A stretch of DNA of 61,610 bases, filler included, from Circinaria calcarea (Eukaryota): the NCBI GenBank assembly GCA_051942165.1. It is 7 parts of 7 records of this genome, joined end to end, with 100 filler letters (N's around TTAATTAATTAA, not from the genome) between each part and the next. Parts side by side here need not be neighbours in the genome. Positions count along the whole stretch, not along the records: positions 52,901 to 61,610 come from JAVECS010001065.1; 6 more parts are not named here. The stretch is one strand, 5' to 3'. Below, one piece after another: positions 58,235 through 60,418 of the stretch. Under the pieces are notes generated by a model that ran no database searches, was not told the DNA's origin, and saw nothing but the letters and a program-made list of their open reading frames with translations. How positions within the stretch are numbered: position 1 is the first letter of the stretch; the number at the start of each line of letters is the position of its first letter. The position numbers and the translations under genes were made by a program.

Positions 58235-58891
58235 ATGATGCCCAAGTGGCACGAGCAGGTTTATGAGAAAGTCAGTGGAGGAGAAGATGACTTTTCTATT
58301 GGAAGGAAAACGGGGAAAAGTATCTGGCAGATTCGTATCCGCTCTTTACTCGCAGGCATAGCGATCTCCATTCTCATGGCCGTTTGCGTCGGCGGTATCA
58401 TCTGGTGGCCCTCTCGCCTGCACTCTGCTCGCCCTCCTTCCGCCAAACTCGACCAATCTGGTGCGCCAGAAAGATATCGCTACCACTGCGGCCACTCAAT
58501 CGAGGAAGCGAAAGCACTGGGCTGCTCATGGGACTTGCTCGCTGCAGCCTGGCTTCGACCGGAATGCATCGACCAGGAATTGACGGACGGTTTTCGAGCA
58601 GACGGCCCGTGGCAATATTTTGCCGACAAAGACGGCACCGAGGAACTTCAGGAGGAGGAATTGCAGTACCGCGTTGGTGAGAATAAGACATATTACACGT
58701 CGCTCAAATACCATCGAACGCATTGTTCTTACCAGTGGAGGAAAATGCACCGTGCGATGGAGAGGGGATCGAGGATCGAAAACGCCCTGGCGGATTACCA
58801 TCATACTCTGCATTGTGGATATGTTTTCTTGATGGAGGGTGAGCTCTCGGACTTGTCGACTTTGATCTCGGTTGAGTTTATGTATTGTTAA
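58235..58891 (+). CDS. UstYa/DUF3328-like twin-HxxHC protein #1 (type II membrane anchor, 218 aa)
   Basis: Single N-terminal TM (LLAGIAISILMAVCVGGIIWW); CGHSIEEAKALGCSWD…W..PEC.D block; HRTHC (58712-58726) and HTLHC (58802-58816); C-terminal Cys. Confidence 0.75.
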   Translation: MMPKWHEQVYEKVSGGEDDFSIGRKTGKSIWQIRIRSLLAGIAISILMAVCVGGIIWWPSRLHSARPPSAKLDQSGAPERYRYHCGHSIEEAKALGCSWDLLAAAWLRPECIDQELTDGFRADGPWQYFADKDGTEELQEEELQYRVGENKTYYTSLKYHRTHCSYQWRKMHRAMERGSRIENALADYHHTLHCGYVFLMEGELSDLSTLISVEFMYC

Positions 58892-59704
58892 GGGGAAACA
58901 GAAAGTGCGGACAACGATATAGAAGGGTGTTAGGATCTTGTTGCTCGATGCTCTCCGTACTATCCACTCCACAATTATAGCAAAATATACTGGGCAGTCT
59001 GCGAACCGCAATAAATGAAAAATCCTGTCTGCTCGGTCCTGAAGCCCAAAAGCCTAATTATCTCCCTTTACTTCGGTACGCACCCAGCAGCATAATGTCG
59101 GGTGAGATTTGAAGCCGTTTAATGACGACAATTATGCATCTATGAACTGATCAAAGTGAAATTATATAAGCCATACTCGCATTAGGCATCCAGAATGATA
59201 TCACCCGTGCAGTGTTCGTACCTCACAAGTCCGAGGGATTACCAACAATTAAAGTTTACCACGGTCCGAGGCTACAGGTTTCGGAATTGCGAAGCTCGGG
59301 TCTTTCGGAATTTACAATAACGGCTATGCAAAGTACTTCTCCTAGTCGATTCCTGCTGTTGAGCTCCGCTTCCGGAATGTCGTCGGAAATCCGGTGTCCT
59401 CCCTCTTGGGGGAGGGGGGATTCTCGGTTCAAAAAGGGGGTACTCCGTAAAACGCATGATCTCACTCGTGGATCTTAGATTTCCTTACAACAAGTACTTC
59501 TGTTCGCCAACGAAGGGGTGGTATAGGTTAAGAGGGCGTCTGCAAACCTATTTTATTTCTATATACTTTTGCGGATCAATCGTATTTCAATACCGAGACC
59601 AAACTTTACCTGGTGGGTGCGTGTCCTCATCAATAATACCATAAGTCCCAAGGTCGCTATTGACCAAAAACGCTCTAAGCAGAAATCAGATCTCCGAAAC
59701 AATC

Positions 59705-60418
59705 ATGGCACCCGCACGAGACAGCTCTGCAGAGGAAGGCCTGCTGCCGAAAGAATCCTGGGACAGCAAGAATAGTCTCGAACCCATTATCATTCAATCC
59801 TCGAAAAGATCCAGCGTCATGTACACGGCCATCTGTGTCCTCGCCGGCATGGCCTTCTCTCTCATCGTCCTCAGCGTAACCTCGAGTATTAAAATCCGGC
59901 AGCCTCTCCAGCCCACCCGTTTAAGTCTCCATGAACTCGGCCTCGACCCCGCGCTCAAGCCCGGCGAAGACCCCGTCGAGAACGGATATTGGTGCGGCAC
60001 GACCCCCGAAGAGGCCCGGACCAAGGGCTGCCAGTTCGACCTGGTCCTGTACTCCTGGGTACCACCGCCCTGCTACGACGCGGAGCTGCAACAGGCGTAC
60101 AAGGACGAGCGCGAGTCGGAGTGGTACCGCCATCGAGAGGGCCTGAATGGGGAAATGGTGCCGCAGGAGAGGGCGGCGTTGGGGATTGAGGAGGGGCTCT
60201 GGCTCTCGTGGGCGTATCATGACTATCATTGCCAGTTCATTTGGCGGATGATGACGCGAATCTTGCGGAATTCGAGCATGGGCGTGCCCGGACGGCTGCT
60301 GGAGTATTATCACACGGATCATTGCATCCATGTGCTCAAGGGGACGGAGCCGGGACCAGCGGTTGATATCAGTACCCTGGTTTCGCTGAATTACTCCACC
60401 TGCTACTCGCGGACTTGA
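59705..60418 (+). CDS. UstYa/DUF3328-like twin-HxxHC protein #2 (type II membrane anchor, 237 aa)
   Basis: ATG 59705; TM AICVLAGMAFSLIVLSV; CGTTPEEARTKGCQFD…WVPPPCYD; HDYHC (60218-60232) and HTDHC (60311-60325); paralog of 58235-58891 (D[L/I]STL[I/V]S…C terminus). Confidence 0.75.
   Translation: MAPARDSSAEEGLLPKESWDSKNSLEPIIIQSSKRSSVMYTAICVLAGMAFSLIVLSVTSSIKIRQPLQPTRLSLHELGLDPALKPGEDPVENGYWCGTTPEEARTKGCQFDLVLYSWVPPPCYDAELQQAYKDERESEWYRHREGLNGEMVPQERAALGIEEGLWLSWAYHDYHCQFIWRMMTRILRNSSMGVPGRLLEYYHTDHCIHVLKGTEPGPAVDISTLVSLNYSTCYSRT

Follow-up and report, generated by a model that had tools for sequence, protein, structure and literature searches.

What are two small neighbouring genes, each encoding a pair of HxxHC motifs, and do they belong with the UstYa/DUF3328 copper oxygenases of fungi? 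The question is raised by a 61,610-nucleotide stretch of DNA from Circinaria calcarea (assembly GCA_051942165.1), referred to here as the window, in which the two genes, named A and B, stand close to the end. Fungi tailor peptide toxins with copper enzymes of this kind. That DUF3328 enzymes work as binuclear-copper catalysts, able to bring about hydroxylation, halogenation and cyclisation at unactivated C–H positions, has been shown only lately (available text of PMC12435403 and, for ApnU, PMC12871659). Mining for such enzymes, and for the fungal gene clusters of peptides made on ribosomes and modified after translation (RiPPs), depends on the Pfam profile PF11807 or on close homology. A first-pass annotation, made from the sequence alone, had proposed that A and B form an atypical UstYa/DUF3328 subfamily. 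Our answer is that they are probably anciently diverged members of a remote sister family of the DUF3328/UstYa binuclear-copper oxygenases, one that is invisible to Pfam.

Two paired-motif genes and their family

The features of the two genes and their products are as follows, the luminal placement of the C-terminal domains being putative.

58235–58891, plus strand: gene A, a single-exon open reading frame (ORF) of 218 amino acids, unbroken from ATG to stop
Product of A: brief N-terminal tail, then a membrane helix (hydrophobicity highest in the 19-mer spanning residues 38–56) and a luminal Cys-rich domain with two HxxHC motifs
58487–58573, plus strand: N-terminal luminal block of A, CG..EEA..GC.WD..W..P.C.D, reading CGHSIEEAKALGCSWDLLAAAWLRPECID, residues 85–113, with three of the six luminal Cys
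58712–58726, plus strand: first HxxHC of A, HRTHC, residues 160–164, within the predicted interface (residues 161–199)
58802–58816, plus strand: second HxxHC of A, HTLHC, residues 190–194
59705–60418, plus strand: gene B, a single-exon ORF of 237 amino acids, unbroken from ATG to stop
Product of B: disordered N-terminus (1–36), membrane helix (37–65) and luminal domain (90–237) with two HxxHC motifs
59993–60079, plus strand: N-terminal luminal block of B, CG..EEA..GC.FD..W..P.C.D, reading CGTTPEEARTKGCQFDLVLYSWVPPPCYD, residues 97–125
60218–60232, plus strand: first HxxHC of B, HDYHC, residues 172–176, on helix 169–188 and within the predicted interface (residues 173–212)
60311–60325, plus strand: second HxxHC of B, HTDHC, residues 203–207, on helix 201–212

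Two intact, intronless reading frames are present, as the first-pass annotation described, and every motif that it quoted, from the shared CG…EEA…GC.[WF]D…W..P.C.D block to the paired HxxHC, is found in both. Its figure of about 25 residues between the two HxxHC motifs is close to the measured 25 (A) and 26 (B), a start-to-start offset of 30–31. The hydrophobic peak falls at residues 38–56 in B as in A, and six Cys follow the membrane helix at equivalent positions in the two proteins. A and B align over 191 columns with 28% identity (BLASTP E 3e-23), a likeness that reflects homology rather than chance; they are paralogues. Both reading frames also align with their orthologues over the full length. 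In keeping with a gene free of introns, the public collection contains a 237-amino-acid protein (P0001) identical to the translation of B. The exact sequence of A had no record among 5.8 billion proteins, its best match showing 59–61% identity, and the source assembly may leave gene A without annotation or carry a different gene call for it. The orthologues of A begin 10–25 residues earlier, but in the window the ATG at 58235 is closely preceded by a stop codon. That the genes are chance ORFs or pseudogenes is ruled out by hundreds of conserved homologues.

To gauge the size of the family, a profile was built from 23 sequences drawn from both orthologue groups (alignment A1) and run against 1.84 billion cluster representatives with exhaustive HMMER. 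Among representatives at 50% identity, 2317 matched at E ≤ 1e-3, 1804 at E ≤ 1e-10 and 266 at E ≤ 1e-30; the matches listed were the best 150 of the 2317. At the level of single proteins, A has 23 orthologues at E ≤ 1e-3 (47–61% identity) and B has 19 relatives in the public collection besides the identical entry. All named matches are from Ascomycota, the closest being lichen-forming fungi and Diaporthales, and no relative was recovered from prokaryote genome contigs or viral contigs with a narrower family alignment (A5). The family is fungus-specific, and it is a large one without a Pfam model: the 43 rows returned by the A and B searches contained no precomputed Pfam domain. The expectation that such proteins are usually annotated as hypothetical was borne out, as every source name given (11 of 19 non-self rows for B, 8 of 23 rows for A and 6 of 10 clusters) was ‘hypothetical’ or ‘uncharacterized’; the named clusters among those 10 include Aspergillus heteromorphus and A. 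alliaceus. No description of a family with two HxxHC motifs outside PF11807 was found in the literature searched, which stopped short of subscription journals and supplements, and the available portions of PMC13489965 and PMC12625553 do not treat it. An InterPro or PANTHER grouping of these proteins may already exist.

At least two HxxHC are present in 179 of 188 family members, with start-to-start distances of 29–37 and a mode of 30 (111 members). In B numbering, the residues invariant across the 23-sequence alignment are C97, G98, E103, A104, C109, D112, W118, C123, D125, G160, H172, H175, C176, R185, H203, H206, C207, T224 and C233. Among 79 diverse members, C97, G98, A104, C109, W118, C123, C176, H206, C207 and C233 remain invariant, and H172, H175 and H203 are retained in at least 90%. 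A wider set of 149 aligned sequences, picked for having two motifs, keeps C97, G98, A104, C109, W118 and C123 without exception, together with the four His and both motif Cys. Within 20 A-type sequences (A numbering), C85, G86, E91, A92, C97, D100, W106, C111 and D113 are invariant, as are H160, H163, H190, T191, H193 and C194, while C164 is found in at least 90%.

A quick maximum-likelihood tree of 149 domains, rooted at its midpoint only, separated an A-type clade (SH-aLRT 97) from a B-type clade (SH-aLRT 96), and the two are not sisters. Because the clades are separate and non-sister, the pairing of A with B is old, with no recent duplication behind it. Recent tandem duplication, considered as an origin for the pair, was rejected since A and B fall in separate old clades.

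Probable kinship with the UstYa/DUF3328 oxygenases

The first-pass annotation suggested that profile searches may miss the pair, and they do. PF11807, which has a gathering cut-off of 25 bits, gave no match to A or B at E ≤ 10; none of the 149 relatives reached the cut-off (best E 5.2e-4, approx. 20 bits) and 130 of them had no match at E ≤ 1. No strong canonical match was thus found, which agrees, if indirectly, with the first-pass remark that the proteins lack the canonical UstYa sequence context, and they lie outside PF11807 as that profile defines it. Elsewhere in the window, no PF11807 gene was present among 81 of the 86 ORFs of at least 110 amino acids, the other five overlapping A and B. 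When prokaryote genome contigs were searched with a degenerate FHQLHCLN pattern, the 65 matches were due to chance and lacked a second HxxHC in frame. A match to Rad10 (E 0.099) was dismissed as noise.

Below the threshold, PF11807 was the commonest Pfam family, found at E ≤ 1 in 12 of 79 members and 19 of 149, with 4 and 8 members, respectively, for the next family. At E ≤ 0.02 it matched three of 77 members (P0090, P0119 and P0124); in each, the two HxxHC motifs fall inside the matched stretch, which corresponds to positions 117–176 of the 220 in the profile, and a metagenomic relative (an ORF of locus L007, E 0.0013) behaves similarly. Language-model features point the same way. The top clusters in the ESM Atlas are unnamed ascomycete ones (0.96) and the best named clusters are PF11807, at 0.86 for B (172 of 256 features in common) and 0.85, 0.85 and 0.84 for A, although scores under 0.9 count as leads only. 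A and B also carry the motif HxxHC(x)nHxxHC by which the wider DUF3328 superfamily is defined in the available text of PMC12435403 and PMC12871659: both have two HxxHC near the C-terminus at a separation within the expected range of about 25–30 residues. The DUF3328 layout of disordered tail, single membrane helix and C-terminal domain is likewise present, and a luminal orientation of that domain fits the six equivalent Cys and the NYS sequon retained in B-type proteins, from which we infer it.

The AlphaFold2 model of full-length B (pLDDT, the predicted local distance difference test, 79.8) has a low-confidence tail at residues 1–36, a helix at 37–65 and a folded domain after about residue 90, in which HDYHC sits on helix 169–188 and HTDHC on helix 201–212. 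Modelling the domain alone with the 149 aligned sequences raised the pLDDT to 93.6, with a predicted template modelling score of 0.87. Among solved structures, a sequence-profile search returned low-complexity or membrane-helix matches only, Foldseek gave best E values of 2.5 (full model) and 4.3 (domain model), and VIA-align in its wide setting reached Z-scores of 3.5 (3.3 Å over 71 residues) and 3.4 (3.5 Å over 74 residues), none being 5 or more. No DUF3328 structure was among the matches from the PDB searches, and the lack of a solved-structure match does not show a new fold.

When A (residues 33–218) and B (36–237) were predicted as a complex, the scores were 0.60, 0.71 and 0.74, a median of 0.71 against 0.35 for the best of three controls. 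Among solved complexes, 51 of 78 attain the mark passed here, as do 2 of 108 pairs that are mismatched, and the prediction, made without alignments, does not separate a heterodimer from homodimers. The runs agreed in at least 69% of contacts, with a partner pLDDT of at least 72, and placed the confident interface at A 161–199 and B 173–212, which are the HxxHC helices. In the models only, then, each HxxHC lies on its own helix and those helices form the dimer interface, as in DUF3328 enzymes. This supports a CctR-like assembly. CctR, in the available text of PMC12435403, has a membrane helix at 38–59 and a luminal helical domain with its HxxHC motifs on two helices, and dimerizes via a four-helix coiled coil with two Cu per monomer; its authors, too, relied on AlphaFold models.

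Several points weigh against kinship with DUF3328, beginning with the silence of PF11807 and including the limits just given for the Atlas scores and the complex prediction. The sub-threshold matches span just 55–60 or so of the 220 profile positions and may owe most of their score to the two short motifs; moreover, all 149 relatives are kin to each other, so that their PF11807 matches are not independent. As no solved structure resembles the models, function draws no independent support from the fold. The proposal of a divergent UstYa-like oxidase clade is partly supported, by sub-threshold PF11807 matches, PF11807 clusters in the Atlas and a CctR-like layout.

A conserved neighbourhood and a candidate peptide precursor

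Pairing of A with B extends beyond this genome, being kept in lichen fungi and Diaporthales. Consecutive locus tags join an A-type and a B-type gene in Protoblastenia rupestris (Q9164_003672/3) and Cytospora mali (VM1G_07809/08), and 7 of 19 B-type matches lie on contigs equal in size to that of an A-type match. A scan of metagenome neighbourhoods, covering 8 loci from few organisms, found A and B adjoining in L001 (in tandem, as in the window) and in L004 and L005 (divergent). A third gene, encoding a major facilitator superfamily (MFS) protein, belongs to the same unit.

55602–57426 (ends approximate), minus strand: MFS gene, sucrose-transporter/SLC45-like, with several exons; conserved neighbour of the pair

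Its product matched MFS_2 (PF13347) at E 7.9e-6 with 25.1 bits, under the 27-bit cut-off, and in the PDB it matched the plant transporter SUC1 (8bb6, E 1.1e-23) and SLC45A4 (E 1.3e-14). An orthologue adjoins A-like and B-like genes in L005 and L003, its two large exons showing 39% and 28% identity, and the genes of the module are oriented differently in the two organisms. What is conserved as a genomic unit is A, B and a sucrose-transporter-like MFS permease. Beyond these three, the L003 and L005 loci have nothing in common with the final 21.6 kb of the window, which ends 1.2 kb past B. The family is locally expanded in the relative represented by L003 and L005: a third member (L005 3–713, minus strand; L003 7081–7806, plus strand) lies about 6.5 kb from the pair. 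Between that gene and the pair is an ORF resembling a fungal transcription factor (L005 2851–3978).

A transporter as conserved neighbour, in place of a biosynthetic core enzyme, would suit proteins that are not enzymes at all: Cys/His-rich luminal membrane proteins with a structural role, or engaged in copper/zinc buffering or delivery or in sensing, in which the double HxxHC is convergent or was retained without catalysis. Such proteins would also be in keeping with the lack of significant homology to any characterized enzyme, and with the last 20 kb of the window, where no polyketide synthase, non-ribosomal peptide synthetase, tyrosinase or methyltransferase is encoded. We consider this improbable. 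None of the 149 sequences departs from the four His or from either motif Cys, and, as those were chosen for two motifs, it matters that both motifs also recur in 179 of 188 unselected members; UstYa is the sole family to which Pfam and language-model features alike point time and again; and the layout and predicted dimer interface mirror those of a published enzyme, CctR.

More probably, A and B are oxygenases related to DUF3328. Each would be a single-pass protein with a short cytosolic N-terminus, a membrane helix and a disulfide-rich domain of about 140–150 amino acids on the luminal side of the secretory pathway. As in CctR, ApnU and AprY, with which we draw an analogy, two copper ions would be held by the four His, and O2 with an electron donor would be used to oxidise a substrate by C–H hydroxylation, halogenation or cross-linking. 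The models make a dimer via a four-helix bundle of the HxxHC helices most likely, and the conserved adjacency of A and B suggests that it may be an A:B heterodimer. In this genome the substrate may be a precursor with NVGVS repeats encoded two genes upstream, a link that is not conserved. It is a candidate Kex2-processed repeat precursor (KEP), and an 8-mer recurs around it and the neighbouring genes.

54069–54431, plus strand: candidate KEP of 120 amino acids, whose membership in the system is uncertain
53615–53622, 57763–57770, 59279–59286, 59303–59310 and 60678–60685: copies of TTTCGGAA, around the KEP, in the spacer between the MFS gene and A, upstream of B and shortly past its end

At its start the KEP resembles a signal peptide, and it carries about ten NVG[VI]S cores parted by R or KR and partly by EAEAE spacers; its coding DNA holds 3.5 copies of a 57-bp tandem unit with 87% matches. 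It lies upstream of A at a distance of 3.8 kb, or two genes. Read together, positions 54069–60418 could be a dikaritin-like RiPP gene cluster, in which Kex2 would cleave the KEP in the Golgi, A and B as a copper enzyme would oxidise the cores (by hydroxylation, cross-linking or halogenation) and the MFS protein would export the product. The precursor itself looks the part, with near-identical cores and R or KR sites behind a secretory start, and its distance from A is within the reported range for DUF3328-linked KEPs: in the available text of PMC7329392, 22% of 7878 KEPs have a PF11807 gene within 15 genes, at a mean distance of 3.09 genes. The same source gives about 5.3 KEPs per ascomycete genome, a rarity that makes chance adjacency of a KEP to a single gene pair such as A/B unlikely.

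Other evidence points away from such a cluster. No KEP homologue was found at E ≤ 1 among the 5.8 billion proteins in the 66–210 amino acid band, a search that did not return the KEP itself either, so that it seems to have no record there. In the relative with a syntenic MFS–A–B module (L003, L004 and L005), flanks of about 7 kb upstream of the pair and about 9.5 kb downstream contain no KEP-like ORF, nor did tblastn or tblastx of the KEP match these loci; a 36-bp repeat in L004 (5747–5824) lies outside any precursor-like ORF. L007 also lacks a KEP-like ORF, so that the KEP is absent from both independent relatives with long flanks, a small sample (n = 2) examined with a script that recovered the window's own KEP. 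The cores contain no Tyr, Trp or His, whereas Tyr occurs in 65.6% of DUF3328-linked KEP repeats in the available text of PMC7329392. The permease is of the sugar-symporter type rather than a typical drug-efflux MFS_1 protein.

In favour of the cluster, the 8-mer TTTCGGAA (read as TTCCGAAA from the minus strand) occurs five times in the window, each time in intergenic DNA of the KEP/MFS/A/B region, where 7 of the window's 12 sites for the relaxed form TTCSGAA also lie (within 53470–60685). Set against this, the motif was picked after the fact, its count of five is not above chance (3.05 expected) and it is not retained in relatives; as a shared promoter element it is a lead only. On balance a functional link between the KEP and A/B seems doubtful, and we hold the dikaritin-like cluster as a tentative possibility of the same order. 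The first-pass idea that linkage to a KEP could serve as a general hook for RiPP mining is not supported, given the lack of a KEP homologue and the syntenic relative without a KEP-like ORF: the case for using the A/B family in this way is not made.

Kinship with DUF3328 has consequences of its own. A sister family of similar size, lying below the PF11807 profile, would widen the enzyme superfamily and add a distinct N-terminal luminal module, and one of our alignments (A6) is a ready hidden Markov model for pathways missed by current rules. The conserved pairing of A-type with B-type proteins offers a testable case of a predicted heterodimeric copper site. A bolder view, which we think unlikely, is that the clusters found (at least about 1800) constitute a second branch of fungal binuclear-copper oxygenases, unseen by PF11807 and hence by RiPP rules built on UstYa, with obligate heterodimers of members from the two ancient clades (A-type and B-type) and a hidden class of pathways, some acting on non-aromatic Kex2-processed precursors like the NVGVS repeats of the window. 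If true, it would help to explain some of the KEPs, 78% in all, for which no DUF3328 partner is recognised.

The remainder of the window holds genes of other kinds. Two encode fungal rhodopsin-like domains (PF20684; 9035–9939, minus strand, and 27218–28168, plus strand). A YEATS gene (20695–21402, minus), SYF2 (23151–23807, minus) and a DUF7514 gene (29789–31910, plus) are also present, with an RSN1_TM fragment at the start of the window. Protein-kinase genes lie at 44679–47660 (minus), with a DUF7580-like tail, and at 48483–49541 (plus), the latter followed by a large ankyrin-repeat ORF (49977–52289, plus). A gene combining NACHT/NPHP3_N with ankyrin repeats occupies 4548–7913 (plus). These are NOD-like receptor (NLR)-like and kinase–ankyrin genes such as are common in filamentous fungi. 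Six pairs of 44-base N runs recur at a spacing of about 8.8 kb (8726–8825, 17544–17643, 26362–26461, 35176–35275, 43989–44088 and 52801–52900); these look like masking rather than assembly gaps, and one pair breaks an MFS-like ORF (52853–53338, minus).

Comparison with known systems

One parallel is with the BURP-domain peptide cyclases of plants, in which four planar His bind two coppers and peptide side chains are oxidised (a comparison made in the available text of PMC12435403). The fold and lineage are unrelated to those of A and B, with no sequence or structural match, and the parallel is one of analogy only.

At the level of the locus, the closest known arrangement is that of KEP and DUF3328 genes in the ‘ust-RiPS’ or dikaritin systems that make ustiloxin, asperipin-2a and phomopsin. 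These share with the window a secreted repeat precursor with Kex2 sites near two HxxHC membrane proteins and a transporter. In contrast to them, the window has an orphan precursor, devoid of aromatic residues, that is not retained alongside the pair in relatives; the locus has no tyrosinase or methyltransferase, and its HxxHC proteins are outside PF11807.

Among the proteins themselves, comparison is with the DUF3328/UstYa enzymes (CctR, ApnU, AprY, UstYa/UstYb, PhomY and VicY), from which the A/B family differs in several respects. It falls below the PF11807 threshold throughout (0 of 149), with a counterpart only at about positions 117–176 of the profile. The N-terminal half of its luminal domain is a distinct invariant block, CG..A..GC.FD..W.P.C, with three extra Cys, and a further Cys is conserved towards the C-terminus. 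The family consensus round the first motif is YHxxHCxYMWRKMHRA, as opposed to the FHQLHCL-type context that we take to be a trait of canonical UstYa. The conserved neighbour is a sugar-type MFS gene, with no precursor, tyrosinase or methyltransferase.

The likenesses are those of overall plan. Both groups are confined to fungi and consist of proteins of about 220–260 amino acids, with a disordered N-terminus that would be cytosolic, one membrane helix and a putatively luminal domain. In both, HxxHC(x)nHxxHC is spread over two helices close to the C-terminus, via which dimers are predicted to form. Our statements on ApnU draw on the available portions of PMC12871659, PMC12625553 and PMC12435403; in the preprint table of the first of these its motif Cys are C173 and C200, which compares with the motif offset of 30–31 in A and B. 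Finally, as in the available text of PMC7329392 for UstYa and UstYb, two paralogues often stand side by side.

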